This document shows, piece after piece, positions 1-64,000 of a stretch of DNA of 64,000 nucleotides. The notes under the pieces were generated by a model. The model saw nothing but the letters and a program-made list of their open reading frames with translations. It made no database searches and was not told the origin of the DNA. Position 1 is the first letter of the stretch. Each line of letters starts with the position of its first letter. The translations under genes were made by a program, and so were the position numbers. Source of the stretch: a virus (taxonomy: Duplodnaviria > Caudoviricetes); the IMG/VR virus record IMGVR_UViG_3300009868_000002, positions 39,556 through 103,555 of that record; one strand, given 5' to 3'.

Positions 1-1
1 G

Positions 2-496
2 AGTGCTGATGCACTGGCGCGTACTAGCATGCAGCAACAGCAGCTAAAGTCACAGCAGCAAATGGAATATGCCAATACGCTGGACGTGATGGGTCGCCAG
101 CGGGTACAAGCGGAGAATTACGCCGAGCAGCTAACGCAGCAAAGTAAAGCTGGATACCAGATGGGACTACAAAACATTCTGGAAAGCGTAGGCGGTACAG
201 GACAGAAGCTTACCGACTATAGGGCCAACATCGCACAGCAGCGCCTGATTAACTCGGTATTGCAAACAGCTGACTTCAAATTAGGCGACCCCAAGGGACT
301 TATCGAGAAAGCTATTCGGGGACAGGAAGTGGATATCAACGATGCTATACGAATCAATCAGGATATAGCCAGTGGCACTATTACCCCCGAAGAGGGATAT
401 AAGCAGCTGGAAGAGCTGACGGCGGCACACCGACAGCGTACAGGTGCTTTGACGACGCAGGCTTACGGGGGTTGGCTAAAGAAAATGACTAAGTAA
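2..496 (+). CDS. 3' part of a putative virion/cargo protein (starts upstream of the window)
   Basis: The frame of ORF 29..496 is open back to position 2; Gln-rich helical sequence; TAATG overlap with the next cargo gene. Confidence 0.6.
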   Translation, partial: SADALARTSMQQQQLKSQQQMEYANTLDVMGRQRVQAENYAEQLTQQSKAGYQMGLQNILESVGGTGQKLTDYRANIAQQRLINSVLQTADFKLGDPKGLIEKAIRGQEVDINDAIRINQDIASGTITPEEGYKQLEELTAAHRQRTGALTTQAYGGWLKKMTK

Positions 497-3270
497 TGGC
501 ATTAGCACGAGGAACAATCATAAAGCCGGTAGAGATAAACCTCCCGGTATTGCAGGCCCCCACAGAGCTTATGTATCAGGCCATGATAGGGATGCAATCG
601 GAGAAGGATATGTATAGTGCTCTAGCGTCCACTACCCCTAAAGCACGTACCGTTGATGAGCCTTGGCGTCAGGAGTATACCAAGTACGTGCAGGACTTGA
701 GCGATAGTGTAGCACAGGCTTTTGCCAGTGGCAATACGGAGTACGCCATGAAGTCGCTGCGCAAAGCTAAGACGAATGTACAGGAGTTGTGGAAACCTGG
801 GGGATTGGCTTATGCGTTGGAAGAAGGCGCTATCGCTGAAGCCACTGAAATAGCGCGTATCAAGGAAGCACACGAGAAAGACCCTACAGGTGCTGGTAAT
901 ATGATGTTTGCGCTAAAGCGCTTTAGGCAGGGACAGCAGCCACTAAACTATGATTACGAAACAGGGCAGTACAATAGAGTAGGACAAGCAGACTTATATA
1001 GGCATGTAGTTATCCCTGCTGAATTGCAGGAGCTGGCAAAAGCTACAGTACCCGACTTAACAGAACAGGATTTTGTTACAGGGGCATGGATAGAGAAAAT
1101 TAAGACAAAAAATGTACCGCCGGAGAGGCTGGCAGGACTATTCGATGCTTTTATTGCACGCCCCGATGTACGTAGTCAGCTGGAAGTAGATTACTTTTCT
1201 TCTACCGGCATCGATTTAGCAGACTATGACTTCAAGGGTATGGACTTATCGACTCCTGAAGGTGCCAAGAAATTCGAGTTTGTAGCTATCACTAAAAATG
1301 CGCTGGATAAGAATTATAAAACTACTAAAGATGTATATACTGCGATGTCGGATACCGACAAGCAGAAATATCTTAAGGAGTTAGGATACTATAAGGGAAA
1401 GATTGACGGTGCGTTTGGAAAACTCAGTAAGGAAGCTGAAGAAGCTTACCTTACGCAGCTGGAAAAGAGCTATACGAATAATGTTACCTCCCTCTTGGAA
1501 AATCCCAGAAGGTATCTTATTGAAGATGTTGCTGCAGCAGGGCACCGCCAGATGTTCTTTAACTTATTTGGCAAGGAGTACAGCCATACGCTGAAGGAAA
1601 ATCCCTACTACTTGGAGAATCTGCGATTTTCCCATCGCAAGGCATTGCAAAAGAACTGGTACGATTTAAAGCAGCAATATGTTTTGCCACAAACAGATAC
1701 TACTACTGTTGCTCCTGGTCCTGCCATAGACTTCGATACTACACTGCAAAACATGATTGATACTGCTACTGGCAGGGAGAAAGCTGCTAATAATATGCTC
1801 GGCAATATCATGAAGCAGCCTGATGTCGTAGCAGTATTAGGCACTAAAGGACTGGGGAAAGAAGACGTTATCAAGCTTACAGAGCTTTGGGAGAAAGCAC
1901 AAGGTATGGCAAATCCCAAGCAATATTTCAATAGCCAGGCTTATGGAATTATTCCTGTAGGTGCCAATCTGGAGAAGATGTACGACTTCATAGGTACCAA
2001 AGGAGGAGAACTTGGTAGTATCGTTAACGATATGGAGTCTGCTGCTATTGAACGTAGTAGGCTACAAAAAGTAGAGTCTGAAATAGTCATAGAAACAGGA
2101 GCATTAAATGATAGTTATAGTCAGTTAAAAGACAAGTTACCGGAAGGAACTACTATACAGCAGTTTGCTGATATGGTACAGCGTGCATCAAAGATGACGG
2201 TAGATGAAATACGCGCTAATCGAGAACTTGCTATATTCGCCTCAAAGAAATCATCGCATCCTGAAGCTATAGAATGGGAGAATGAAGCTACACAGCTTTG
2301 GAGAAAAACTAAAAAAGAAGTAACAAAAACAATCAAGCAGACAGGCAAAGTACCTCAAGCCTTGACTTCTTTAGTACTGCATGCTACCAGTCCTAAAGAC
2401 CCTATAGCTATAGCTAATAAGCAAATGTCCGGGATGCTGAATGCCAATAAGCATGTCTTTGTTGATGCTGCCACGGGAGTCACTGGAGAGCTTACTGCTA
2501 TAGGAGACAGTAAGGCTGTTAACGTAGATGCTATTGATATGAGCAAGGCTACTGCCGCCATGACTACTATTGCCGGTAAGCCTGTAATTCAAATCACTAC
2601 TCCTGCAAATAGCAAGGGAGATAGCAAAGTATATCAAGTAGAAGTTCCTTCGCAGAATAGCAACATGCGGGATATTGCTCTTGGAGCAATACGCCAGAAA
2701 GTAGCTATGGCACTGAATAACGGAGATACCAAAATGCTGCTGCACTATTCCAGCATCCTTAGTCAGGTAGGACTTACTGATACTGATATGGGGTATAGGG
2801 CTATAGAGGTTAACAACCGTATAGCGATAGACCCTGATGAAGCTCCCGTTACTACTGCCAGTGGAGGAAAGCTGTCATCTGCCTATACTCCTGTCAAGTC
2901 CGTATCTATGCAAGACAGAGTAGGAAACGAATACACTTATAACATTATCACCTGGGGCAACGATAATGGCAAGCGTTGGGGCATTACATTTGGCAATACG
3001 CTGCTGGGCCCAGTGCAAATAGCCGATACAGAAGCAGGTCTAGGCGTAACGTTTGATAATACCAGAAGTGTCTCCGATTCTGGCTATACCAGGTATGAAG
3101 ATGTGCTTACAGCATTGGAAGCAGTAAACCAGGGCATGAACCTTCCTGTAGAAGAAGAATTGAAAAAAGCTGCTGCTGGCGCTGCAATGCAAACGGGAGA
3201 ATCCGAATCAGTAGAAATGAATATTCCTGCCTACATGTTTCAGGACATGGGAATAGGAGAAGAAGAATAA
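496..3270 (+). CDS. Putative virion cargo/ejection protein (924 aa) with a peptidoglycan-binding-like segment
   Basis: Long ORF upstream of the giant RNAP block as in crAss-like phages; internal KQKYLKELGYYKGKIDGAFGKLSKEA resembles PG_binding_1. Confidence 0.6.
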   Translation: MALARGTIIKPVEINLPVLQAPTELMYQAMIGMQSEKDMYSALASTTPKARTVDEPWRQEYTKYVQDLSDSVAQAFASGNTEYAMKSLRKAKTNVQELWKPGGLAYALEEGAIAEATEIARIKEAHEKDPTGAGNMMFALKRFRQGQQPLNYDYETGQYNRVGQADLYRHVVIPAELQELAKATVPDLTEQDFVTGAWIEKIKTKNVPPERLAGLFDAFIARPDVRSQLEVDYFSSTGIDLADYDFKGMDLSTPEGAKKFEFVAITKNALDKNYKTTKDVYTAMSDTDKQKYLKELGYYKGKIDGAFGKLSKEAEEAYLTQLEKSYTNNVTSLLENPRRYLIEDVAAAGHRQMFFNLFGKEYSHTLKENPYYLENLRFSHRKALQKNWYDLKQQYVLPQTDTTTVAPGPAIDFDTTLQNMIDTATGREKAANNMLGNIMKQPDVVAVLGTKGLGKEDVIKLTELWEKAQGMANPKQYFNSQAYGIIPVGANLEKMYDFIGTKGGELGSIVNDMESAAIERSRLQKVESEIVIETGALNDSYSQLKDKLPEGTTIQQFADMVQRASKMTVDEIRANRELAIFASKKSSHPEAIEWENEATQLWRKTKKEVTKTIKQTGKVPQALTSLVLHATSPKDPIAIANKQMSGMLNANKHVFVDAATGVTGELTAIGDSKAVNVDAIDMSKATAAMTTIAGKPVIQITTPANSKGDSKVYQVEVPSQNSNMRDIALGAIRQKVAMALNNGDTKMLLHYSSILSQVGLTDTDMGYRAIEVNNRIAIDPDEAPVTTASGGKLSSAYTPVKSVSMQDRVGNEYTYNIITWGNDNGKRWGITFGNTLLGPVQIADTEAGLGVTFDNTRSVSDSGYTRYEDVLTALEAVNQGMNLPVEEELKKAAAGAAMQTGESESVEMNIPAYMFQDMGIGEEE

Positions 3271-3271
3271 T

Positions 3272-6200
3272 ATGGCTAAAGTAACCAGACCAATCGCTAA
3301 TCTCAATCCTATTACAGGACAGCCTATACTTCCCCCTGCTGATGCAGGATATAAGTTTGGACAAGTGCAGGCAGGAGGAGGCTTTGCACCTTGGAGTGAT
3401 ATAGACTTATCGGAGTTCAGGCGGCTGGTTCCTATTCCAGTACTCACTGGAGATGAAGCTGTTGACTACGCACGGCTAACTGAAGAGAGGGCGCAAAATC
3501 AGTCTACCTTTGAGCAATATCGCAATGGCGTAATAAAGTGGGCTGGTAAGACGGCAACAGCACTCATTGGTGGCTTAGCGACTGTCCCTTATACTATCGG
3601 TGTAGCAGGACTGCAGCTTGCCGACATCGCTATCCCCGGCAACGTGGTAAAGTGGAGCGACATCTATAACAACGCTTTTCAGCGCTCTTTGGATAGTGCT
3701 AACCAGTGGATGGACAAAAACCTGCCTAACTACTATACCAAGGCACAGCAGGAGATGGGACTGGGTAGGCAGATGCTTACTGCCAACTTCTGGGCTAACG
3801 ATTTCCTCGGTGGCATGTCATTCATGACGGGTGCTATCTTGAGTGAGATTACGGCATCCTATCTTACAGCACTTACCTTTGGTGCTGCTGCTCCTGCGCA
3901 GATGATGATAACGCAGGGTATCCTGGCACGTACCGCCAAGCTAATGAAGATGCTGCAGCGTACTGCTCCCATCGACGACGTCATCAAGGGATATGCAGCA
4001 CTTGGTAAGTCGGGAGCAGCATTTCAGAATATACAAGGACTGCGCAGCATCATTACGGGTGCCGGATATGAAGCGGGCGTCGAAGCACGCCACTTTATCG
4101 ATGAAGCAGAACGTGATATGATTAGCAGCTTTGTCGACGCTGAAGGCAGGGAGCCTACAGCAGAAGAGCATGCTTCGATGATGGATAGGATAACCAGGCA
4201 GGCTAATGGCGTCTTCGCTACCAACCTGGGACTGGTAGGTGCCTCTAATGCCGCGATTTTTACCAAGACATTTGCTCCCCTACGCAACATGATTGGCAAG
4301 GCGCTGCGTATGGGCCCTGCTCCTATAGCGGGTGGCGTGCTCTCTCCCTTCGTCAAGGAAGGAGAGAAGCTGGCAGCACGGGAGATAGGGAATTGGGAGA
4401 AAGCATTGGTATCTGCCTATAAGCTCGCCAAGAAGCCCTTCATCGAAGGTGTATGGGAAGAAGGTTTGCAGGGCGTAACAAGCTCGGCAGCAGTGGATTA
4501 CGTCATGAAGAAGTACAGCCATGATGGTGGTGATGCTACTTACTCTATGGCAGAAGCTATTACCAAGGGATTTGAGCAGGCTTACGGCACCAAGGAAGGA
4601 CAAAAGGAAGTGCTCATTGGTGCTATCATGGGGTTGATAGGCAGTCCTATTACCCGATTTGAAGGCAGCTCCATCAAAGATGTAGTAAACTACCTACGTC
4701 AGGGCGATGCCAACAAAGCATTCGCTGAACGCTATAATAACGTACAGACGCTACCGACGATACAAGCAGCCGTGAAGTCTACCATTCGTGGCCATGAGCT
4801 GAATCAGGAAATGGATTACGCCATTGACAGGGATGACTTCTTCAAAGCCAAGAACGCTGAAGATGATGGTATCTTTAACCTGCTGCAGATGCGCTACGAT
4901 TCAGGCTATCTCGACCAGGTTGTTGACGACTTCGACGACGCTGTAAGAGATTACTTGGCCAATAGCGAAGAAGACGGCTACAAGAAGATGGCGGCAGACT
5001 TTGGCTTCGACCCCAGCACGTCGGTAACGGAGATGAAGGATAGGCTCAAAGAGGTGAGGGCAGGGCTGGAGATGAAGGTAGAGGCTTTCCGCAAAGCCAA
5101 GCAGAACGCCAAGGATGCTCTTATCCGCCCTGATGCCGACTTGGAAGAAGGGCTGACATATACGCTATATAACATCGGCAGAAAGAGCGAAAGGGAAAAA
5201 GAGGTAGCCAGTGAGATACAGCGCATAGTAGGTGATGTCGATACCAGAGAGTTGGAAGATATACGTAACTCCAACTTGTCGATATTGTTCTCCCGTAACT
5301 GGAAGAAGACGTTTGAGAGTGAGCGTGGCAATCTTCTCGACGAGATGGATACTATGGAGAAGGACTTGGCAGAAGCACGCCAGAATTACGATAAAGCGCA
5401 AAAGAAGTTTGAAGATAAGATAAAGAGACTAGGAAAGCGGCGTACTCCCAAGACAGCAAAGGAGATAGAAGATATCAACAAGCTGCCAGAAGAGCAGCGT
5501 GAGCTATTGCGCTATCAGGAAACAGGTTATACACAGGAGCTGCTGGATATCGAGTCTTCTATTACTAAGCTAGAAGATAATATCGAGAAGCAGCGTAAGA
5601 AAATCGCCGCCAAAGTAGCTAAGGAATACCAGGACCGCAACAATACGTCTATTCCCTACGACATGGATTCTGTGGAATTTGAGAATCTCGTCGACAGGGC
5701 ACTAGCGCTGCGTAAGAAGCTGGAAGTACACTACAAAAGCAATCCTGTAAATAAGAAGAAGCTAAAGCTCCTATTCGACGACTTGCATAGGCTTTCTGCT
5801 TATCGTCAGCGCCAGATTATGGAATATAACATGCTGGTTAGCCAGCCAGGTGCCGAAAACTTTCTGGAGAACGTCGCTGAGTTACGCTCTCTTATCGAGC
5901 AGGAGATTAATAGTGGTGCAGAAGCACAGCTAAAGAGAGCCGATAAGCTGTTTGCTAACAAGGCACGCGTCAAGAAGCTTATCGCCAGATACTATAGCGA
6001 CGTAAGCCCTGAAACCAAAGATGCGCTGCTGGAGACATTCAAAAGCTATGTCCCTACCGCCGATGAGATGGCGGTGGAAGCAGCAACAAGACAAGGCCCT
6101 GATGCACTCAATGCCCTCATCGAAGGTGCTACGAAGGTATCGGCAGGGCATCAGTATGTAAGCAACCTATTTCGTACGATGCCCCAGTGGATGCGTGCTG

Positions 6201-9200
6201 GTAACGCCGCCATGCAGGCAGAGAAGCAGGCAGCAGAGCAAGCAGTCCAGCAACAGCAGGAAGAACCTAAAGAAGAAGGTGGCATTCCTGTGCCTCCTGG
6301 CAGCTTTAAGAAGCAAGAAGGTGCAGCACCTATATCCCCGTCGACGACTACCGAAGGGGCAGTGAAACCGCCTGCAGGATTTACAGCACCAGGAGCTGCC
6401 AAGTCTTTTGTTGCAGAAGTAACAGAAGGGGAAAAGCCGCCAGAGGGATTTACCGCTGCTCCACCTACTGCTCCCCCTGCTGGATTTACAGCACCTACAG
6501 CGACGCCGCCACCTAAAGGATTTACAGCAGGAGAGCCAGAGACTAAGGGAGGTAGGCAAGTAGCGGTAACTAACCCCAATGAGCTGCTATGGATATGGAA
6601 TGACTATCCCGAAGCACGCAATCAGGAATTATGGGAAGAATCTTTCGATGAAGCTACAGGCAGAGGTATACGCGAGTACCCCGATGCCACCAAGAAGGCG
6701 ATGCGGGCATATACCGCCAAGCCAAAGGCATCGAATCTACAGCTACGTATCGAAGAGTGGAATCCTGCTGCAGAGAATCTGGAGCCCGAAGTACGCATTA
6801 CCGACGATGTGGTGATGATGCGTACTTATCTGCGTGGTGGCAAGCATTGGAGAGCACGTCTCTTTGTGCGGGAAGATGCTAACGATGAATGGCATGAGGT
6901 GGGCAGCTTGCTCAACCCCAAGCGCTATGTCAATAACGATGGAGTGCCTTTCGACTTGACGGACCCCGAGCAGCGCTCCACCCTTAATCCTGCCTTTAAA
7001 GAAGGCGAGCAGGGTGAGAAGCTTTCTACGATGTATGAGAAGCTGACGAAGGAAGAATCGCTATGGAGCTGGATAGACAGCCAGATTGATAAAGGAGGCG
7101 CCACTGTTACGGGGACTCCCTTGCAGGTGGTATTTGGCAAGTCCGATGTGCACGTGAAGATGTTTAACTTCAGCATCAACCACGGTGGTACCGTGATGCG
7201 CTGGCAGGAAAAGCACGGTGGACAGTCTATTGAAGAGAAGTTTCCCCCCGATATCTATGGACGTGAAGTTACCATCAAGGGTAAGAAAACCAAGGCGATA
7301 ATCTATATCGACAAGAAGACGAATACCGCTACCGGAGAGACTAAATTTAACTACACTTTCCTGCATTACGACGAGGACGGCAACAGGATGTATAGCGAAC
7401 CAACGCCGGAGCAGTCACAGGAAATCTACGCTGAAGATAAGGCATTACGAGAGAATAAGCAGAATAAGGCTTACCGTGTGCAGGATAAGATTATACTGTT
7501 TGAATACGATGGCCACAAAGAATGGAGTGGTGTCATGAATCCTCCTGTTGATGCAGAGGCTGTTAAAGCTGTAGATGCAGAGTTGGAGCGCATCTTCACC
7601 AAAGATGAAGAGGGACTATACCCCCATCAGCGGGAAGAGGAATTCGAGGAAGGCAAGGGACGACAGGTAGCGCTGCTTCCCAAGGATGAAGACAGGTATA
7701 TTTCGGTGCTGGCGTATGATAATGCCAGTGGTAAGGGCAACCTGCTCAAGGGCATACATATCAGCCTACAGATGTGGGTGAATAAGCTCAAGAATGCCGA
7801 TGCTTCCAAGCTGCTGGGAGGTCCTACTTCCTACTTCAACGTAGAGTTAGGCATCGAGATGAATGATACCTGGGTGAACTTCATCGTCAGCCGTACAGAA
7901 GACGGTGTTTTCTACATGGAGCCCAAGGATAGCAGGGGCGTAAAGTATCGTACCTACATCGGCCCTAACATAACGATGGAAGGCATCCTCAATGCGCTCC
8001 ATACAGAAGAGTATATGAAGAGTGCTCCTACCAAGTCGAAGATTGCCAACTACCTGGAAGGCAAAGCAAAAGCTTGGGGAGTACCTGGATTTTACATCAA
8101 AGGCACTGGATACAGACAGGGCAACCAGCAAGGCAGGTCAGTCGCAGCATTCGATGCACTAGCGCTGATGTCTCCCAATCCTTCTGCTTTTCTGGATATG
8201 GACTTGAAAGAAGAAGAGGAGATAGGTGCTGTGCAGGAATTTCTGGAAGGACAGGAGCAGAAAGAAGCTGAGGAAGAAAAGAAAGAAGAGGTACCTGCAA
8301 AAACAGAAGCTCCTGCAACAAAAGGATTTACAGTAAACCTGCAATCTACCCGTGGCGAGGATGATGATGTTCCCTTCAAGATTGTCCCTAACGTTTCCGA
8401 CAAGGAGCTTACTACCTTCGATGAGGCTAAAGCTAATATACAGTCTATCCTCAATATCGACGTCAAGGATATAGATACCGTCGTCGGCAACATCGCTAAC
8501 AAGGGCATCACGGTAGGCGCCTTTATGTCGAACGTCGTCTACCTATCCAAGAAAGCATTACCCAAAGGTACAGAGTGGCATGAAGCTTTTCACGTCGTCT
8601 TCCGTACCTTCCTTAGCAACTCACAGATTAGCCACTACCTGGGATTGGCAAGAGAGCGCTATACGCTGCCCAGCAAGGAAGCATTAGAGAAATTCAGGGA
8701 GCAGGCTGCCAACCGTAAAGACTTGACGGCTAAGCAGCTGGAAGACTTGTGGCTGGAGGAGAAGATGGCCGATGACTTTGCAGACTTTCAGGCACACCCT
8801 GCCAGCTATACCAGGACGAAGAAACACAATAATGCTTTCGTCAGGCTATGGAATGAGCTGCTGAAATGGTTAGGGCTCTATAGCGAGCATGCCGACGAGA
8901 TTGAAGCGCTCTTTAGCGACATCAGCATTGGCAAGTTCCGTACGGCTACTCCCGTGTATAACATCTTCAGGCTCCGCAAAGAGGCGGCATGGCTCAACTA
9001 TCCTACTATCGAGATAGCGGAGAACGATATCCTTCCTGTCTTCGACGCCAAGACGGTTAGTAGCGACGTACACATGCTTGCTGCATTGGTGTACAGGCAG
9101 CTGACAGCACAGGGCATTGACGGATTTAATAAGTACCACATCTCTGCCATTCTGGATACCATGCGCGACAGGTTCAACCCCGAGCGCTGGGATAAGAGGC

Positions 9201-11761
9201 TTGGTGGTGCTGTCGATGTAGCAGAGGCAGACAGGAATGCACTATATCAGAGGCTGATAGGTATACATAACGCCATCAGCCATCCGGGGCAGACGATATT
9301 TGCGCTGGATAACAATGGAGGCTTTGGCGCCATCAACTTTGAAGGCAACAGCCCTGAAAGCATAGCGGCTTATGATAAGCGCTGGCAGAAGACATACGAT
9401 GCCAACCTGGAAGAGATATTGAAAGACATCAAGCTGATGAGTGTCATCTATCAGCAGGATGAAGTGCTGGCAGAGGATGCCAACCAGGCTGACTATGAAG
9501 AGAGTGAAGAAGATTCTCTCCCCGGCAATGAAAAGAAGGGAGACAGATATGGGGGATTATCCTCTACATCAAAAGCTTTCAGGCAGTACATCCTTACCAC
9601 CTATGGAGAGATGGACTACTTCGAGCTGGGCATAGGTGAAGATATACTCAAAGCTGACGCCAACAAGGAGTTGTTTCTATTCCCTGCCAACCCTGGTATA
9701 CTGTATAACGGTATCTTGGCGGCACTGCGCGATACTCCTATTCAGGAAGTGATGTCCCGCTTTGTGGTATGGAGCAGGGACAACAAGAATAGTAGGCTGC
9801 TGGCAGAGCGTCTGTTTAGCGACATCAAGGCAGAGCTCAAGCAGAATGGGATTGCTGTAAGGGACATCGAAGACTATCTGGCAAATGTCGCCAACGTAGC
9901 AACGCTAATACGCAATAGCAATACATTCAACCTCTTCATCAACAACTTCACCAAGCATAGCAGGGAGTACCTGGACTTGATACTTGACCCCACGAAGACA
10001 CATACCCTCATCAGTCCTATGCACGCTAACCAGCAGGATAGCGACGCCATGCAGGTAAACAGGTGGCGTGCCAAGATGGCGAGGGCCTATGAGAAAGCAC
10101 CGGCAGGTACTCCTTTCTTTGGGCAGAACAACGTATTGCACGGTGTGCTGCAGGACATCCAAGCCAAGTTTGAATTCTTTAGCGGCAAGAATGTCGACAA
10201 GACGGTGAGGGAGATAAAGGCGTTATTTGACAGCATCGGTATAGAGGTGGCACCGGGGTATATACGCTATAGCCTGTATCGCAATAAAGCCAACGAGTTT
10301 GAAGCTTTGGACCCCAACGATGAAACGGCAGATAGCGACTTCATCAAGTTTGGCAGGACGTATGATAGTATCAACGAGCCTACCATCGCTGAAGAGCTGG
10401 GGGGATTGACAGAAGTGGCGCGTGGCGGTACCGTGCAGGTGGTAGGGGATTTCTTCACCAGCGAAAAGGGAGCGCTTAGCAGGCTGATGAAGCTGGCACG
10501 TACCAATACGCTGTTCGACGAGACGCTCTTCCGTACCAGCATACAAAACTCCAATGGCGAGAGGGTATTTCCTATATCGTCGCCGTCATTTGTCTCTACG
10601 ATGTCGCTGCTGCTGCGTGACAGGAGAAGGAGAGCTTTCGTTGACGCTATGCGGGTGCTGGCAGCGAATCCTACTAAAGCTAACGACAAGAAAGCATACC
10701 AGGCATTTACCGATAGCATGGGAAGTGAATTAGGATTGGAGCCCTACTTTGCACGGCGCTACTTCGACAACATTAAGAATAACCCGCTGCTGCTGGGGCT
10801 GACGAATGACGGCAGCTATGATAACCGCATCAGCGAAGTATTCCTTAACTACTTCATCGACTATAACTTGTTTGGTGTAAGGCTGGACTTCTTGGAAGAA
10901 GTCGAAGAGACGGGTGAGGTAGTCAGGGAGACATGGAAGCAGGGATATAGGGAGGGCGCCGACTACTCCGACTTGGATGCTTTCAGTAAGCTTGTCGCCA
11001 AGATGTCGTTTTATATTGATAGCACAGGTACTATTAACAGGGCTGCTTCGGAAGCTATCGAAAGCAAGAAGGAAGTGCTAGTGCCTTTCCGCGTCGTCGT
11101 TCCGGCGGTGTTGGAAGCCAAAAAGACGGCTAATGCTTTTGCTGTGCCAGTGCTTAAGTACACCAGAACCGATAAGGAGAAAGGCTTGGTGCTATCAGAT
11201 ATAGGCAAGAAAGTATTTAAAGCACACCTACAGCGGGAAGTGGATAATCTCAACAAGACAAAAGCGGAGATTGCCGCCATCATCAAGGGCGACAAGATAG
11301 AGAATATCGTCGAGAAGTACCACTACATTCCTTATAACGATAGCAAGTATACGTATCAGGACGGCACTTTCTACGAGATTGTGCCAAAGTTTATACGCGA
11401 TGAATATGGTGCTCCCGTCATGGACAGCATGCAAGTTACCGTCGTCACGGATAGCAAATTGATTGAAGATTTGCAGAAGGAACTTCCCAAGCTACGGGGG
11501 CTGCGCTTATTCGATATGCGCATACTTCCTAATGCCGACGAGATAGAAAAGGCAGGCGTCATACCGAAAGACATCGACGACGTAATAGACAGCCACATGC
11601 AGTCGGAATTTCATAAATTTGTACAGCTATTGCGTGTCAAGCACCGTGCTGTTGTTTCCGACTTGCACGGAAAGAAGGGACAGGAGCTATTAGCGATACT
11701 AAACCAGCAGCAGGCATTCAAAGATGCCTGGGCTAAAATAAGCAGATTACCATGCAAATGA
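3272..11761 (+). CDS. Giant virion cargo protein (2829 aa) with zincin-like metallopeptidase motif
   Basis: EWHEAFHVVF (HExxH, ~8579-8593) plus downstream EEKMADDF; N-terminal hydrophobic Gly/Ala-rich helices; Pro-rich linker; position beside the virion RNAP. Confidence 0.75.
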   Translation: MAKVTRPIANLNPITGQPILPPADAGYKFGQVQAGGGFAPWSDIDLSEFRRLVPIPVLTGDEAVDYARLTEERAQNQSTFEQYRNGVIKWAGKTATALIGGLATVPYTIGVAGLQLADIAIPGNVVKWSDIYNNAFQRSLDSANQWMDKNLPNYYTKAQQEMGLGRQMLTANFWANDFLGGMSFMTGAILSEITASYLTALTFGAAAPAQMMITQGILARTAKLMKMLQRTAPIDDVIKGYAALGKSGAAFQNIQGLRSIITGAGYEAGVEARHFIDEAERDMISSFVDAEGREPTAEEHASMMDRITRQANGVFATNLGLVGASNAAIFTKTFAPLRNMIGKALRMGPAPIAGGVLSPFVKEGEKLAAREIGNWEKALVSAYKLAKKPFIEGVWEEGLQGVTSSAAVDYVMKKYSHDGGDATYSMAEAITKGFEQAYGTKEGQKEVLIGAIMGLIGSPITRFEGSSIKDVVNYLRQGDANKAFAERYNNVQTLPTIQAAVKSTIRGHELNQEMDYAIDRDDFFKAKNAEDDGIFNLLQMRYDSGYLDQVVDDFDDAVRDYLANSEEDGYKKMAADFGFDPSTSVTEMKDRLKEVRAGLEMKVEAFRKAKQNAKDALIRPDADLEEGLTYTLYNIGRKSEREKEVASEIQRIVGDVDTRELEDIRNSNLSILFSRNWKKTFESERGNLLDEMDTMEKDLAEARQNYDKAQKKFEDKIKRLGKRRTPKTAKEIEDINKLPEEQRELLRYQETGYTQELLDIESSITKLEDNIEKQRKKIAAKVAKEYQDRNNTSIPYDMDSVEFENLVDRALALRKKLEVHYKSNPVNKKKLKLLFDDLHRLSAYRQRQIMEYNMLVSQPGAENFLENVAELRSLIEQEINSGAEAQLKRADKLFANKARVKKLIARYYSDVSPETKDALLETFKSYVPTADEMAVEAATRQGPDALNALIEGATKVSAGHQYVSNLFRTMPQWMRAGNAAMQAEKQAAEQAVQQQQEEPKEEGGIPVPPGSFKKQEGAAPISPSTTTEGAVKPPAGFTAPGAAKSFVAEVTEGEKPPEGFTAAPPTAPPAGFTAPTATPPPKGFTAGEPETKGGRQVAVTNPNELLWIWNDYPEARNQELWEESFDEATGRGIREYPDATKKAMRAYTAKPKASNLQLRIEEWNPAAENLEPEVRITDDVVMMRTYLRGGKHWRARLFVREDANDEWHEVGSLLNPKRYVNNDGVPFDLTDPEQRSTLNPAFKEGEQGEKLSTMYEKLTKEESLWSWIDSQIDKGGATVTGTPLQVVFGKSDVHVKMFNFSINHGGTVMRWQEKHGGQSIEEKFPPDIYGREVTIKGKKTKAIIYIDKKTNTATGETKFNYTFLHYDEDGNRMYSEPTPEQSQEIYAEDKALRENKQNKAYRVQDKIILFEYDGHKEWSGVMNPPVDAEAVKAVDAELERIFTKDEEGLYPHQREEEFEEGKGRQVALLPKDEDRYISVLAYDNASGKGNLLKGIHISLQMWVNKLKNADASKLLGGPTSYFNVELGIEMNDTWVNFIVSRTEDGVFYMEPKDSRGVKYRTYIGPNITMEGILNALHTEEYMKSAPTKSKIANYLEGKAKAWGVPGFYIKGTGYRQGNQQGRSVAAFDALALMSPNPSAFLDMDLKEEEEIGAVQEFLEGQEQKEAEEEKKEEVPAKTEAPATKGFTVNLQSTRGEDDDVPFKIVPNVSDKELTTFDEAKANIQSILNIDVKDIDTVVGNIANKGITVGAFMSNVVYLSKKALPKGTEWHEAFHVVFRTFLSNSQISHYLGLARERYTLPSKEALEKFREQAANRKDLTAKQLEDLWLEEKMADDFADFQAHPASYTRTKKHNNAFVRLWNELLKWLGLYSEHADEIEALFSDISIGKFRTATPVYNIFRLRKEAAWLNYPTIEIAENDILPVFDAKTVSSDVHMLAALVYRQLTAQGIDGFNKYHISAILDTMRDRFNPERWDKRLGGAVDVAEADRNALYQRLIGIHNAISHPGQTIFALDNNGGFGAINFEGNSPESIAAYDKRWQKTYDANLEEILKDIKLMSVIYQQDEVLAEDANQADYEESEEDSLPGNEKKGDRYGGLSSTSKAFRQYILTTYGEMDYFELGIGEDILKADANKELFLFPANPGILYNGILAALRDTPIQEVMSRFVVWSRDNKNSRLLAERLFSDIKAELKQNGIAVRDIEDYLANVANVATLIRNSNTFNLFINNFTKHSREYLDLILDPTKTHTLISPMHANQQDSDAMQVNRWRAKMARAYEKAPAGTPFFGQNNVLHGVLQDIQAKFEFFSGKNVDKTVREIKALFDSIGIEVAPGYIRYSLYRNKANEFEALDPNDETADSDFIKFGRTYDSINEPTIAEELGGLTEVARGGTVQVVGDFFTSEKGALSRLMKLARTNTLFDETLFRTSIQNSNGERVFPISSPSFVSTMSLLLRDRRRRAFVDAMRVLAANPTKANDKKAYQAFTDSMGSELGLEPYFARRYFDNIKNNPLLLGLTNDGSYDNRISEVFLNYFIDYNLFGVRLDFLEEVEETGEVVRETWKQGYREGADYSDLDAFSKLVAKMSFYIDSTGTINRAASEAIESKKEVLVPFRVVVPAVLEAKKTANAFAVPVLKYTRTDKEKGLVLSDIGKKVFKAHLQREVDNLNKTKAEIAAIIKGDKIENIVEKYHYIPYNDSKYTYQDGTFYEIVPKFIRDEYGAPVMDSMQVTVVTDSKLIEDLQKELPKLRGLRLFDMRILPNADEIEKAGVIPKDIDDVIDSHMQSEFHKFVQLLRVKHRAVVSDLHGKKGQELLAILNQQQAFKDAWAKISRLPCK

Positions 11762-39296: not shown

Positions 39297-39617
39297 TCAA
39301 AATGTGTCATCGTCATGGTTAGCACCGGCGAAGACTTCTGCTACATTGGCGCTAAATCCTTTAGCGTCAGTAGCAAGGGTGTACCCTTCTCTAATGGCGA
39401 CGCCAGTGTTATCGTCACTAGGAGTGTCGTCTACAAAGACGACGTCGGTACGTTGGGGCTTACGGCGCAAGTCCAGTCCGAAGCTGGCCAGTGCTTTCTC
39501 CAGCCGCTTGGTGGTTACAGTAGTGTGAAAGTCAACGTGGATACGTTCTTTCATCTCGCTCTTAGTGAGGCCCAAGTCATAGAGCCCCACAAGATAACTT
39601 TTTGTGATTTCCTTCAT
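39297..39617 (-). CDS. Hypothetical protein (possible HTH)
   Basis: 106-aa ORF. Confidence 0.55.
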   Translation of the reverse strand: MKEITKSYLVGLYDLGLTKSEMKERIHVDFHTTVTTKRLEKALASFGLDLRRKPQRTDVVFVDDTPSDDNTGVAIREGYTLATDAKGFSANVAEVFAGANHDDDTF

Positions 39618-53631: not shown

Positions 53632-54202
53632 TAGTAGAGTAGTCTTGTAGATAAAGAAGAAAACCTGGAGGTTTTCGTAAGTCTATAATATAGAATTCCT
53701 TCTTTCGATCTTGTTAAAAAATCATGCGAGGAGTTACGATAGCACCATATTCCAAAACATGAAGGTCCTTGTAGTTTCATAGTACGAATCTTAGTGAGGT
53801 ATCAAATCCAAACATTTCGGCATGCTGTGGAATATTATACAGCCAAATAAGAGTTTTTGTACTCATCAATCCCCAGCAATCTATATCATCGTTAAAAGAG
53901 AGCCTCATAGTACAAGTCTTATCGATGTGTCGTGTAAGAATGATACTGCATACATCTGCACATTAGTTAGCTGCCAATTAGCTAAGCCCCAGCAGTCTAT
54001 GCTACATGCCTTTTTATAGTAGAAATTTATCTTCATAGCTAAAGTATTTGCCGTATTACAATGTTAAGCGTATAGAGCGATTGTCAGCCCATTGAGATGG
54101 AAGAAGTATTCCTCCTTTGTTGTCTCTAATCCATCGCACATACAGCTCCAGAGCATGCGCAAAAGTCACTTCGCCAAAGTTTGGCAGCAATCGTAGCTTC
54201 AT
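53631..54202 (-). CDS. RLIL mini-ORF array G: 4 ORFs
   Basis: 54056-54202 (..SIRLTL), 53905-54036 (..SIRLVL), 53777-53908 (..SLRFVL), 53631-53780 (..STRLLY). Confidence 0.82.
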
Positions 54203-54996
54203 CCTATTGTAGGTTTGTCATTAACGTCAAAATAGTAGCTATCTCCCTGTAGTATTGCTCTTCCATGTTCAGCGTATCTGCCTAAGTATTTCCCCGCCAT
54301 CTTTGCCTTCTCTTCTTGATACAGTGTACCACCAGTATCGATGTGGTCGATATTGATAGTAGGCAAAAAGGCATTGCGGAATCCTGCAGCATGGCTGCGC
54401 GTGCAGTACAAACTGTCTTCAAAGCCATAGACGTCAAATTGGTAGAAGCCGCCAATTCTGTCAATAAGCCTTCTGTTATACAGCACACATGTTCCCATGA
54501 TGTGCTTGGCGAATTCGACAAAGTACCAGGGCTCTCCAGCTTTATGTGGTACCATTACCAGCTGACTGCGGAAGTTGGCGTCAGGATGGCTAGGGTTCTC
54601 CCAGCAGTCCTTACGCTTACATCCTAAAATTCCTATCTCCGGCATCTTCTCCATTGCAAACTCCAGCATCTCTATCCAGCCAGGGGTGTTGACGATGACG
54701 TCGTTGTCAATCTTCAGCAGATGCTGCTCAGGCTCCAGTCGTTTAATGCCTTCGTTGAGTCCACCAGCAGTACCCAGGTTTTCTTCCAGCCTTACCAGTG
54801 TAACGTGACTCCACTGTTTTGTCCATTGTTGCAGCAGTTGTGCTGTTTCAGGAAAGCTGGCATTATCAACAATAACCATAGGTTGTCCTGCATCAGCTTC
54901 CCTTTCCAGTCCTTTTAAGGTAGCCTTGGTGTATTTCAGCCTATCGTTTTCTGCTGTATCGTACACACACATACAGAGTAGTACTTTCTTACTCAT
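54199..54996 (-). CDS. Glycosyltransferase family 2
   Basis: IVDNAS, ENLGTAGGLN, KIDND, YGFED. Confidence 0.85.
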   Translation of the reverse strand: MSKKVLLCMCVYDTAENDRLKYTKATLKGLEREADAGQPMVIVDNASFPETAQLLQQWTKQWSHVTLVRLEENLGTAGGLNEGIKRLEPEQHLLKIDNDVIVNTPGWIEMLEFAMEKMPEIGILGCKRKDCWENPSHPDANFRSQLVMVPHKAGEPWYFVEFAKHIMGTCVLYNRRLIDRIGGFYQFDVYGFEDSLYCTRSHAAGFRNAFLPTINIDHIDTGGTLYQEEKAKMAGKYLGRYAEHGRAILQGDSYYFDVNDKPTIG

Positions 54997-55249: not shown

Positions 55250-55975
55250 TCAGCTTTGTGCCACCATCAGCTTCACGAACTGCTCTCCTGTCAGCGGATA
55301 CGGCGTGCAAGGCTCACTCTTTCCACCAGGGTCATCCTTACGGCTTCTCCTAAAGATGAAGATGTCACCTTGGCGATACATACTCTTGGGATTCGTAATG
55401 GGGCAGAACGTTAGCGACGCCAGTGCATTAAGTGCGCTGTACTTTCCGGGCTGGCAGTGTGGTGACTGTGCTGTAGGACTGCTGACATTGATGTAAAAGA
55501 CATGGCCCGTAGTAGGACACACCACCTTTACAGCGTAGATGTAATCGTTACCTGTATTCCTACGACGGGATGCTTCGGGGAATAACTTACTAGCATGTAC
55601 GCGTACTAGGTGATACACATTTTCTAATGTGCCATCTTCCAATAGTATGCCTTCCCTATTCCATACTTTCTGCTTGGTAATTATCTTGCAGGTATCGACG
55701 ACTTCAGCGTCATCGTACACCAAGTACTGTAGACGTAAGTACTCTAAGATACCCCTACGCTTTTCCAGCGAAGGCTCTTTGAGTACATCGGCCAATGTCA
55801 GTGGCTGGATGTTATCCCATTGCTCGACGAGAAACTCGTCGTTCTTCAGCGGCGGATAGTCTTTTAGCATGTCGTCAAGTCCATCCGTCAAGTACTTCGT
55901 CTTGAGGATACGTACCGACGTGGTATAGTCGATGACGTATCTATCTTTTACGATTTTAAAAGTTCCTGTTGCCAT
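55250..55975 (-). CDS. DUF6745-like protein with C-terminal RQGD motif
   Basis: LEKRR, VKVVCPTTGHVFYINV, YRQGDIF. Confidence 0.55.
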   Translation of the reverse strand: MATGTFKIVKDRYVIDYTTSVRILKTKYLTDGLDDMLKDYPPLKNDEFLVEQWDNIQPLTLADVLKEPSLEKRRGILEYLRLQYLVYDDAEVVDTCKIITKQKVWNREGILLEDGTLENVYHLVRVHASKLFPEASRRRNTGNDYIYAVKVVCPTTGHVFYINVSSPTAQSPHCQPGKYSALNALASLTFCPITNPKSMYRQGDIFIFRRSRKDDPGGKSEPCTPYPLTGEQFVKLMVAQS

Positions 55976-55984
55976 AATTGAGAG

Positions 55985-56125
55985 TTAGTAAATGAGGCGA
56001 AAGTTGAGATCGCTGCCTTGATTTCGTGTTGGATAGATGAAGTGGTATGCAGAGCAGCAGCCCGGTATAATACTACCCCAGCCACCGCCGTAGAGTATTC
56101 GGTTGTCGTTCCAGTGTAGTTTCAT
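55985..56125 (-). CDS. 46-aa diverged FGE C-terminal (VR-like) peptide
   Basis: MKLHWNDNRILYGGGWGSIIPGCCSAYHFIYPTRNQGSDLNFRLIY; ungapped 17/46 identity to 56128..56268. Confidence 0.8.
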   Translation of the reverse strand: MKLHWNDNRILYGGGWGSIIPGCCSAYHFIYPTRNQGSDLNFRLIY

Positions 56126-56127
56126 TG

Positions 56128-56268
56128 CTAATAGATTAGCCGGAAACCGACGGTGACGTAGCGGAACGACGGGTCGAAGTCGTCGAGGTAGGCGGCGCGG
56201 CAGTCCCAGGCGCCAGTGAGCCAGCTGCCGCCGCGCAGCATACGATAATCCTTAATATGTAGTCTCAT
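56128..56268 (-). CDS. 46-aa separately encoded C-terminal segment of the FGE-sulfatase/CLec domain; DGR variable-region-like
   Basis: MRLHIKDYRMLRGGSWLTGAWDCRAAYLDDFDPSFRYVTVGFRLIY; ATGA overlap with the FGE gene stop; 71% GC core. Confidence 0.88.
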   Translation of the reverse strand: MRLHIKDYRMLRGGSWLTGAWDCRAAYLDDFDPSFRYVTVGFRLIY

Positions 56269-57140
56269 TCCTGCGGGAGTACGTTGAAGATGTTTTCAGC
56301 GCTAAAGTCCAGGTACTTAATCTTCGGCCAGTTGGCTTTCCAGATTTCTTCTGTCATTACGGGCGGGAATTCGGGGAGACACATCTCCCATACGTTGCCA
56401 TACAAGTCGTATACGTCGTAGCTGTTGGGCTTGAGCTCACCAACGGGATGTGTCCTTCCATTGGAATTCTCCGAAAACCACGCTACCTCTTTCAGGTTGT
56501 TGCTACCAGGATACTTATACGTTTCGTTTGGACGATTTACTACTGCCAGCCACTGGTCACTGATGGGGATACGCTGATGGCATTTGTATTGCACCAAGTC
56601 GATTTTCTCCTGTACTGACAGCTTGCGATTAAGAGCAACTTCTTGCTCCTTCACCAACTGTCCGCCAGTCTTCTCGCTGTTGGTGCCAGGGTAGTACCAC
56701 AACCAGATGTCCCCAGAGATACGGGCAAGGATGTAGGTACGTCCTAATCCCCGGTACTCGTTAATCCAGTTGCAGTATTCGATGGCGTCGAGGATACTGA
56801 TATTCACTGCAGGACGAGTACCACGCCCCCAATTCTGGTCAGCGGGAAAGCGGCGATTGGTATGCCAGCAATAGGCATCGTACATCTCAAATGTAAGGGT
56901 ATGCTTACCAATGAAGAGGTCGCCTAAATCGGTAACTTTGGTTTTCCATGTTACTTCATCAGTCTGTTTCTCTTCCAAGAATTTTTGGCGCCGTGACTTT
57001 GACATGGAATTAAAGTCAGCAAGACGCTGTTTATACTCCACGCAGGCTACAAGCCCAGGAGTTGCAAGAGACTTTACTTCACCGAGTTGGGTAAAGTCAT
57101 AATCCTTGCCTTGCTTAATGGTGAAAATAGCGTTTGTCAT
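56265..57140 (-). CDS. FGE-sulfatase (SUMF1/CLec-fold) protein lacking its RGGSW...GFR C-terminal segment
   Basis: RPAVNISILDAIEYCNW, RIP, YPGSN.L.EVAWF, THPVGELKPN.Y.VYDLYGNVWEMC, then ends with no RGGSW/GFR. Confidence 0.88.
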   Translation of the reverse strand: MTNAIFTIKQGKDYDFTQLGEVKSLATPGLVACVEYKQRLADFNSMSKSRRQKFLEEKQTDEVTWKTKVTDLGDLFIGKHTLTFEMYDAYCWHTNRRFPADQNWGRGTRPAVNISILDAIEYCNWINEYRGLGRTYILARISGDIWLWYYPGTNSEKTGGQLVKEQEVALNRKLSVQEKIDLVQYKCHQRIPISDQWLAVVNRPNETYKYPGSNNLKEVAWFSENSNGRTHPVGELKPNSYDVYDLYGNVWEMCLPEFPPVMTEEIWKANWPKIKYLDFSAENIFNVLPQE

Positions 57141-57210: not shown

Positions 57211-57474
57211 TTAGTCGTTGTTGTTTTCCAAGATGCCTGTCAGAGGGTTTACCTCCTTCTGGATAGTGGCATCATAGATGTCCTCTTCCAGTACGAGCGT
57301 ACCGTGGATGGTATGCTCGACAGGAGTAGGACTGGTAACAACAAAGCAGACAACACCCTCTGCATGGTCGGCACGGGGCTGGAAGATAGCCCGACGCACG
57401 ACGTGCTTTTCGGTGCTGGTCTGGGAGAGGCACACAGGGGCCTCATCGACGGTTTCAACATCAGGTTTAATCAT
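57211..57474 (-). CDS. Small His-containing beta protein of the type often found beside DUF6745-like genes
   Basis: VEHTIHGTLVL..DIY..IQKEVNP..D; likely start ATG 57474. Confidence 0.55.
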   Translation of the reverse strand: MIKPDVETVDEAPVCLSQTSTEKHVVRRAIFQPRADHAEGVVCFVVTSPTPVEHTIHGTLVLEEDIYDATIQKEVNPLTGILENNND

Positions 57475-57485
57475 GATTAACGCGT

Positions 57486-57763
57486 TTAAAATGTTATTCT
57501 TATACTCCTTGATTTTCCAAATGTCCAAGTTTGTATTATCAGGTACATGCCAACATCGGAGATGTTAAAGCTGCCTCCATGCTGGTTAATGGGTTTGTTT
57601 CCTGTAAGAGTATATATTTTCATCATCAAAGTATTAGTCTGAATCCTCTGTCACGATTAAGTATAGCGTACAGTATCACTTTGGGGGCCATCCAATGTTC
57701 TTCTGTAAATGCTCCACCCATTCGGTAGAGATGGATATCTTCCGGTAGGCTGTATAGTAACAT
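57486..57763 (-). CDS. RLIL mini-ORF array H: 2 ORFs
   Basis: 57626-57763 (..YRMGGAF..RGFRLIL), 57486-57626 (..HGGSF..SIRITF); TGATG overlap. Confidence 0.8.
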
Positions 57764-63818: not shown

Positions 63819-64000
63819 GTTGTTTGAAATTAATGATAGGGGATATGTTATTTCCGGCGTTAAGAGGGGGAGCCTTGGTGAGTTGCTCTAACGCAGAAAG
63901 CTGCCACAAAAAGTTTCAGGTTCTGAAGGGGGGGGTAGTTTCCATGCTGCTACAACAGGGGGAGGGGCAGTTTCAAAAGAGGTGATTAGGGGAGTGGAAG

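Follow-up and report, generated by a model that had tools for sequence, protein, structure and literature searches.

A DGR variable region on the separate mini-ORF of a split TvpA-like lectin in a closed phage genome, and the likeness of sister-phage variable regions to Saprospiraceae templates

DGRs have been regarded as self-contained cassettes, and surveys expect the target gene of a phage to travel with the reverse transcriptase (RT) that diversifies it (PMC5758913). In the Bordetella phage BPP-1, the whole cassette (mtd-avd-TR-brt) lies beside the target, the tip of a phage receptor-type lectin is diversified at the adenines of the template (TR), and an IMH and a hairpin are needed. TvpA of Treponema denticola (PDB 2Y3C) is the variable protein of a DGR of the HRDC type ('architecture C'), which has seven remote targets, and its variable region (VR) lies within the final ~40 residues of a C-type-lectin fold of the FGE type. 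It is already known that DGR targets can be remote, that cassettes can be of the HRDC type and that target ORFs may have as few as 44 aa (PMC5758913). According to Guo et al. (2011; PMC3240598, cited in PMC5758913), a TR and an RT supplied in trans were shown experimentally to rewrite a phage without them in the laboratory. crAss-like phages with their own DGRs or DGR fragments are also known (PMC7290462, PMC12386605). The DGRs of crAssphage LMMB (PMC7290462) and of the zeta and epsilon groups (PMC12386605, PMC11054128) diversify C-terminal lectin VRs of full-length tail-fibre proteins with the RT and TR in the phage, and cassette fragments without a working RT have been reported.

We analyzed a window of 64,000 nucleotides (positions 39,556 to 103,555 of the IMG/VR record IMGVR_UViG_3300009868_000002), in which a 46-aa mini-gene, m1, carries a DGR variable region (Table 1). 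The locus resembles that of BPP-1 in that the variable part is the tip of a receptor-type lectin, but there is no cassette beside the target, no hairpin was found, and the target gene is located among early/replication genes instead of tail genes. Among solved structures, TvpA gives the best match to each of the two pieces of the protein described below, and the nearest templates found in this study belong to HRDC-RT-TR cassettes with many dispersed targets, a class described in PMC5758913. Nevertheless, TvpA is a single polypeptide of a bacterium that possesses its own RT and TR, whereas the VR studied here is on a separate 46-aa ORF of a phage with neither. The phage belongs to the same broad group as the crAss-like phages mentioned above, but its target is a split FGE-type protein and its closed genome contains no RT. 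It is unusual for a closed phage genome to hold a fresh-looking VR and yet have neither RT nor TR. On balance, we lean toward the reading that the tip of a split TvpA-like lectin is rewritten in trans by a host-type (Saprospiraceae-like) DGR.

Table 1. Features of the locus (positions in the 64,000-nt window)
Feature	Position	Strand	Basis or remark
Glycosyltransferase family 2 gene, end of the syntenic block	54199..54996	-	PF00535 in the relatives' genes
Conserved 241-aa neighbour, function unassigned	55250..55975	-	Synteny in relatives; no Pfam match
Mini-gene m2, 46 aa, decayed tandem paralogue of m1, 48% GC	55985..56125	-	Alignment; 50% nucleotide identity to m1
Mini-gene m1, 46 aa	56128..56268	-	ORF list; PF03781; TvpA profile match
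GC-rich core of m1 (DGR-written tract), 102 nt	56137..56238	-	CTG CGC GGC GGC AGC TGG to GGT TTC CGG
ATGA overlap of scaffold stop (TGA) and m1 start (ATG); m1 in -1 frame	56265..56268	-	Sequence
Scaffold gene, 291 aa; N-terminal region followed by FGE/C-type-lectin domain without the last strands	56265..57140	-	PF03781, TvpA, orthologues

A variable region that completes an upstream lectin fold

The initial annotation drew attention to the composition of m1, and a recount gave the same figures. At positions 56141-56240 the GC content reaches 0.71, compared with 0.47 for the 2 kb of flanking DNA, and the 100-nt window with the highest GC content in the entire 103,555-bp record falls on positions 56139-56238 (0.72; the record has a mean of 0.469 and a standard deviation of 0.061). 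The stretch that encodes RGGSW to GFR has 32 codons; the third base is C in 25 of them, G in 5, T in 2 and A in none. With a base rate of 27.8% C at the third positions of the long ORFs in the record, this excess of C-ending codons has a binomial P of 5e-9, and the maximum in any 32-codon window of the ORFs of at least 100 aa was 22.

The protein encoded by m1 aligned with positions 213-254 of the 255 positions of PF03781 (FGE-sulfatase) with a score of 21.4 bits, slightly below the cut-off of 23.3. A profile built from m1 and its relatives matched residues 255-290 of TvpA with an E-value of 4e-7, and this stretch is the variable region of TvpA. The motif RGGSW...C.R...GFR, which is located at the C-terminus of the C-type-lectin/FGE fold, is present in m1. 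At the DNA level, the scaffold-codon pattern of m1 (GGC GGC AGC TGG .. GCC .. TGC CGC .. CCG .. CGC .. GGN TTC CG) was found at 27 metagenome loci and 17 GTDB genome loci, and all of the loci retrieved by this gapped pattern are AAC-rich templates or their variable copies. A search of 5.8 billion proteins for relatives of the m1 protein recovered none but m1 itself, and no second sequence of the window lineage was found. The earlier proposal that the segment is a DGR-type variable region is therefore upheld both by the family of TRs and VRs sharing the DNA motif and by the alignment with the TvpA VR. We are confident that m1 represents a true DGR variable region as well as a part of a split lectin.

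The second half of this statement departs from the initial annotation, in which m1 was a stand-alone gene and any diversification would be limited to a small peptide. In fact, m1 overlaps the stop codon of an ORF of 291 aa with an FGE domain, and the domain runs on into m1, which supplies the missing C-terminal piece of the upstream lectin fold, comprising its final strands and the variable region. The product of the upstream ORF (hereafter the scaffold gene) matched positions 76-194 of PF03781 with 56.2 bits (cut-off 23.3), and its profile matched residues 66-125 and 151-242 of TvpA with an E-value of 4e-12. Both the Pfam and TvpA matches run contiguously across the scaffold ORF and m1. Four homologues of the scaffold protein (47-58% identity; 289-298 aa; the same end point) were identified on five related contigs, L003-L007, while no near relative was found in IMG/VR. 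In all five contigs, a VR ORF of 44-46 aa directly follows the scaffold gene (the L006 contig ends inside the mini-gene), and in these contigs, as well as in the window, the two parts of the FGE/TvpA-like domain are in different frames or separated by stop codons, so that the domain is never encoded on a single polypeptide. The distant FGE homologues P0006, P0007 and P0009 were uninformative for this locus, and the sole protein match to the L005 mini-protein was bacterial and unrelated.

The junction between the scaffold gene and the mini-gene is TGATG in L003 and L004, TTGA in L007, and a 126-nt spacer with four stop codons in L005 and L006. Thus, the junction sequences vary among the relatives but the frame relation is constant. 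A sequencing frameshift was ruled out by the differing junctions, the constant frame relation, and the spacer that cannot be bridged in one lineage. A programmed frameshift fusing the two ORFs was likewise rejected, as the sequences have no slippery heptamer in common, their junctions are not alike, and the L005/L006 spacer is 126 nt long with four stops. As far as can be judged from these sequences, the tip is a separately translated peptide. Translation of m1 on its own would probably be coupled to the scaffold gene by termination and reinitiation at the ATGA overlap, and the resulting peptide is presumed to dock onto the scaffold protein and complete the lectin fold. The predicted complex of scaffold residues 85-291 and m1 scored a median of 0.35, against 0.42 for a control, which speaks neither for nor against binding, and the AlphaFold2 model of the scaffold protein, made from a 5-row alignment, was too poor for use (pLDDT 42.8). 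We found no description of a VR placed on its own mini-ORF by a conserved split, an arrangement that appears to be new for DGR targets. The split suggests fold complementation in trans, which may be of use in engineering modular binders.

The synteny around the split gene is also retained. The order of the FGE gene, the mini-gene, and a gene encoding 228-241 aa is kept in L003, L004 and L007, and the glycosyltransferase gene comes next in L003 and L004. Only the start of the third gene is visible in L005, at the end of the contig.

A closed genome with neither reverse transcriptase nor template

The TerL and portal proteins of the phage are of the crAss type (phrog_6681 and phrog_6547, respectively). 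The nearest cultured relative in terms of TerL is Cellulophaga phage phi14:2 (30% identity), and all of the named TerL relatives infect Bacteroidota. Judging from the TerL and portal types, a genome of ~100 kb, and the Bacteroidota-infecting relatives, the phage is crAss-like (Crassvirales-like). The 103,555-bp record was assigned a completeness of 72% by CheckV and is labelled linear in IMG/VR. Nevertheless, the last 62 nt of the record (103494-103555; positions 63939-64000 of the window) are exactly the same as nt 10-71, and the record is collinear with, and equal in length to, a DTR-bounded relative of 102.9 kb. The 62-nt overlap of the ends indicates that the genome is closed, and both the CheckV estimate and the 'linear' label understate its completeness.

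The initial annotation reported no RT or template in the window and placed both elsewhere; the first observation can now be extended to the entire closed record. No RT was detected at E <= 1 by a six-frame search with PF00078 that read through stop codons in the whole record, nor was there any match to PF05635 (Avd). Neither BLAST nor an adenine-tolerant scan found a second VR copy or a template repeat in the 103.5-kb record, in agreement with the failure to see a second copy by eye. Two sequences at hand were considered as the template and rejected: m2 shows 45 non-A mismatches to m1, and m1 itself contains only 10% A. Downstream of m1, we found no strong GC-rich hairpin, as the initial annotation had found no obvious one for an IMH. 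As the genome is closed and these searches found no RT, Avd or TR in it, any writer of the VR would lie outside the phage.

RT was absent also from three relatives that are 92-100% complete (G001-G003), in which a truncated orthologue of the scaffold gene is kept with no mini-gene behind it. The contigs L003-L007 are 10 kb or less, and a phage-borne DGR of these relatives could lie outside the sequenced part. As a separate observation, the relatives at 52% TerL identity carry an extra full-length FGE-domain gene of 231-233 aa (L061/L065 in G004, L062 in G001 and L063 in G002). The C-terminus of this gene is low in GC and not VR-like, and the gene sits beside the truncated scaffold orthologue without a mini-gene.

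Variable regions of the sister phages and templates of Saprospiraceae

The VRs of the sister phages do not follow the relationships of the genes around them. L005 and L006, which came from two runs with adjacent accession numbers, differ at a single position in the 3426 nt upstream, at 6 positions in the spacer and at 34 positions in the last 88 nt, which correspond to the VR; identical scaffold genes here carry VRs that are only 67% alike. The reverse was found between L004 and L005, of which the scaffold genes are 64% identical (41% at third positions) but the VRs are 83% identical. L003 and L004 share 86% identity in the scaffold genes and only 70% in the VRs. With such discordance between the scaffold and VR identities, the relatedness of the VRs is decoupled from that of their flanks.

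The differences between VRs are also distributed in a particular manner. The VRs of L004 and L005 are the same at 34 of 36 third positions, 16 of the 18 differences being at codon positions 1 and 2, and 13 of the 18 involve A (p = 1.5e-4). Between L003 and L006, 19 of 24 differences involve A (p = 4e-5). Such adenine-focused variation was seen among the sister phages, the window lineage being represented by one sequence. Within close lineages, the same locus is occupied alternately by two types of VR, designated A and B. At their 3' ends, L003-L005 have an identical 24-nt tail (with CTG GTC TTG TCT TAA) that could be an IMH-like element. The tail of the window VR (CTA ATC TAT TAG) is unlike this, and a homing signal may therefore be missing from the window phage.

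Scanning GTDB, we identified templates resembling these VRs in a Saprospiraceae MAG, MFD03278_ilm_asm_bin14 (G006). Its contig JBAQQB010000185.1 (locus L081) bears a chromosomal cassette comprising an FGE-type target, HRDC, RT and a template (TR1), flanked by PdxJ and PEPCK. A second RT with another template (TR2) resides on a different contig, and no fewer than seven more VR-like copies are dispersed. The loci examined in this MAG are L081 (G006:C185), L100 (G006:C142) and L102-L108, with one VR adjacent to the cassette and copies over several contigs. Both DGRs are of the HRDC type, and TR1 and TR2 are 86% identical to each other.

Each of the two templates has its counterpart in one of the two VR types alternating among the sister phages. 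TR1 and the type-A VR of L003 show 4 non-A mismatches in 93 nt and share an identical run of 27 bases, while TR2 and the type-B VR of L005 show 6 non-A mismatches in 93 nt. TR2 and type B have in common TCC GCT G.G ..C TGC CGC.CC GCG, CCG CAG, the 5' start AAC CGC GTG and the tail TTG TCT TA. The diagnostic run GCC GAG AAC TGC CGC GTC GCG AAC CGC also belongs to the scaffold that the MAG's templates share with the VR types of the sister phages. These templates are not cognate, however. The MAG's own VRs differ from its own templates by 0-1 non-A mismatches, whereas the numbers are 4-9 for the VRs of the relatives and 12-13 for the window VR (in comparison with TR1, 61 of 93 positions are identical, 20 are A-to-N and 12 are other mismatches). 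Thus, G006 is regarded as a relative of the true donors rather than the donor or the host.

The initial annotation had suggested searching for a near-identical copy of the VR that differs only at A positions. None was found in the phage genome, metagenomes or bacterial genomes, and the best candidates for a TR cognate to the window VR had 10 non-A mismatches (a TR in a JGI metagenome) or 11-12 (GTDB/Saprospiraceae genomes). The gapped scaffold pattern likewise retrieved nothing cognate to the window VR from viral, metagenome and genome contigs, and searches of viral and genome contigs with the shared 24-nt tail and a type-B scaffold 24-mer yielded nothing cognate. The relatives' own contigs contain no cognate template, either. 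TRs located beside the 80 best RT homologues on viral contigs had at least 23 mismatches, and those RTs are no more than 43% identical to the RT of G006. On the other hand, the template family is carried by 50 of the 301 Saprospiraceae genomes sampled. When 20 kb of the window was compared with these 301 genomes, DNA similarity was restricted to two places, the VR tract and portions of the scaffold gene with the FGE domain.

Altogether, we consider a writer of the host type (Bacteroidota, Saprospiraceae-like), rather than one carried by the phage, to be probable. The likeliest account is that the VR came in trans from a DGR of the host type, by writing or by capture. We found no description of a closed phage genome of which the clade's VRs appear to track two templates of a chromosomal DGR in the host family. 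If this is true, a virus can exploit the hypermutation machinery of its host or harvest its products, the diversification of phage and host is coupled, and the matching of VRs to templates can serve as a tool for host assignment.

Origin of the variable region and the mini-ORF family

In the reading we prefer, the core of m1 would have been copied from an adenine-mutagenized DGR template. A multi-target chromosomal DGR of the host would treat the VR of the infecting phage as one more remote target and rewrite it in trans, and the phage would have a hypervariable tip on its lectin while being spared the cost of a retroelement of its own. We infer both the retrohoming in trans and its present-day activity in the window phage. 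The core of m1 without compositional decay, next to m2 that is down to 48% GC, argues for activity; the tail unlike those of the relatives, the lack of a hairpin and the lack of a cognate template argue against it.

The latter observations would equally suit a VR that was written by a DGR, either phage-borne and since lost or residing in a former host, and is now fixed and no longer diversifying. The closed genome without RT or TR and the absence of the cognate TR from every collection searched agree with such a fossil, and m2, like some 35 further mini-ORFs, has the look of a VR in decay. The composition of m1 itself is difficult to reconcile with a fossil, as the third positions of the core remain 94% GC with no drift toward the 47% of the genome, while m2 has already reached 48% overall. 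Furthermore, m1 departs from the family scaffold at three codons (CTC, GGT and CGG), each of which an A in the template would explain, as it does for the fresh VR of L006, and the VRs of the sister phages have been replaced recently. We regard a fossil as rather unlikely.

Alternatively, the phage may have picked up finished, already mutagenized VRs from host targets or other phages by short-homology recombination at the VR ends, with no reverse transcription on the phage DNA. Many dispersed VRs of both types exist in host genomes, conserved sequence of 12-27 nt is available at the ends of the VR, and the uptake of host VRs that have already been mutagenized would also yield adenine-focused differences. 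The six substitutions between L005 and L006 outside the VR cluster in ~70 nt of the spacer upstream of the mini-gene (about 8949-9019 in L005; 3478-3548 in L006), where no template accounts for them, and they probably represent a tract of phage-phage recombination. Thus, the comparison shows that recombination has some part in the L005/L006 difference. Against capture, albeit weakly, the tract replaced in L003-L006 has the same boundaries as the homology to the TR, and identical flanks with VRs that differ by 33% imply a frequency that is high for homologies of 12-27 nt. Retrohoming from the host and capture of finished VRs predict one and the same static pattern, so sequences alone cannot separate the two; we hold capture as the entire explanation to be improbable.

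It is far less likely still that the phage has an RT and TR of its own that were missed because the assembly is wrong, the RT cannot be recognized, or they sit on a satellite or a second replicon. In favor of this, one might point to the completeness of 72% given by CheckV, to the linear label in IMG/VR, and to the stop-codon recoding that makes RT genes difficult to detect in some crAss-like phages (PMC12386605), but the ends overlap by 62 nt, the length matches those of DTR-complete relatives, the six-frame search through stops gave no candidate at E <= 1, and the adenine-tolerant scan gave no TR. Finally, a frameshifted pseudogene or a horizontally acquired GC-rich FGE fragment with coincidental codon bias, for which one could cite the single copy in the window lineage and the m1 Pfam score slightly under the cut-off, is hardly credible in light of the split kept in five assemblies with different junctions, the extreme codon statistics, the scaffold codons common to dozens of TRs at the DNA level, and the adenine-biased VR similarity decoupled from the flanks in the relatives.

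Besides m1 and m2, about 35 mini-ORFs of 38-60 aa, starting with M[KRIN][LI] and ending with RL[IT]L, were detected at positions 29859-54202 of the window (- strand). They form arrays at about 29.9-32.9, 41.6-45.0, 47.0-47.9 and 53.6-54.2 kb between replication genes and are mostly chained by ATGA overlaps. Including m1 and m2, the family has 37 members that conform to the pattern M[KR][LI] ... G..[WY] ... RL[IT]L-stop; they all lie on the - strand, the + strand having no member. Of the 37, m1 and m2 come closest to FGE, and m2 resembles the type-B VR of the relatives, although it has no Pfam match. The family was found in L003-L007 as well, where some members are plainly decayed VRs (GGS[WF]..C..R..FRLIL), but not in the complete relative G003, which has no mini-gene. 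By profile, only m1 matches PF03781, and hhalign aligns only the termini of the array mini-ORFs. The array mini-ORFs look related to the VR on the basis of the shared termini, size, junction DNA and intermediates in the relatives. An extended version of the reading in trans is conceivable, in which the phage clade outsources hypermutation, keeps only the split DGR target, has its tip rewritten by the host DGR during infection, and archives superseded tips as the ~37 MKL...RLIL mini-ORFs, each able to dock on one scaffold, making up a combinatorial lectin library; we put this forward as a speculation that is doubtful as a whole.

Two minor observations concern other parts of the sequences examined. 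A GC peak of 0.65 at positions 57341-57466 of the window, the second highest in the half of the record that holds the window, lies in a 105-aa ORF (57211-57528; - strand) just upstream of the scaffold gene. This ORF has no Pfam match. In the part of the record upstream of the window, GC peaks reach as high as 0.67. On a 100-kb ENA contig (L011), positions 1-10792 contain 12 FGE-sulfatase genes (132-278 aa) in tandem and, after them, genes of the lysis type (SLT/LysM, peptidases); this may be a large phage's DGR array with multiple targets.
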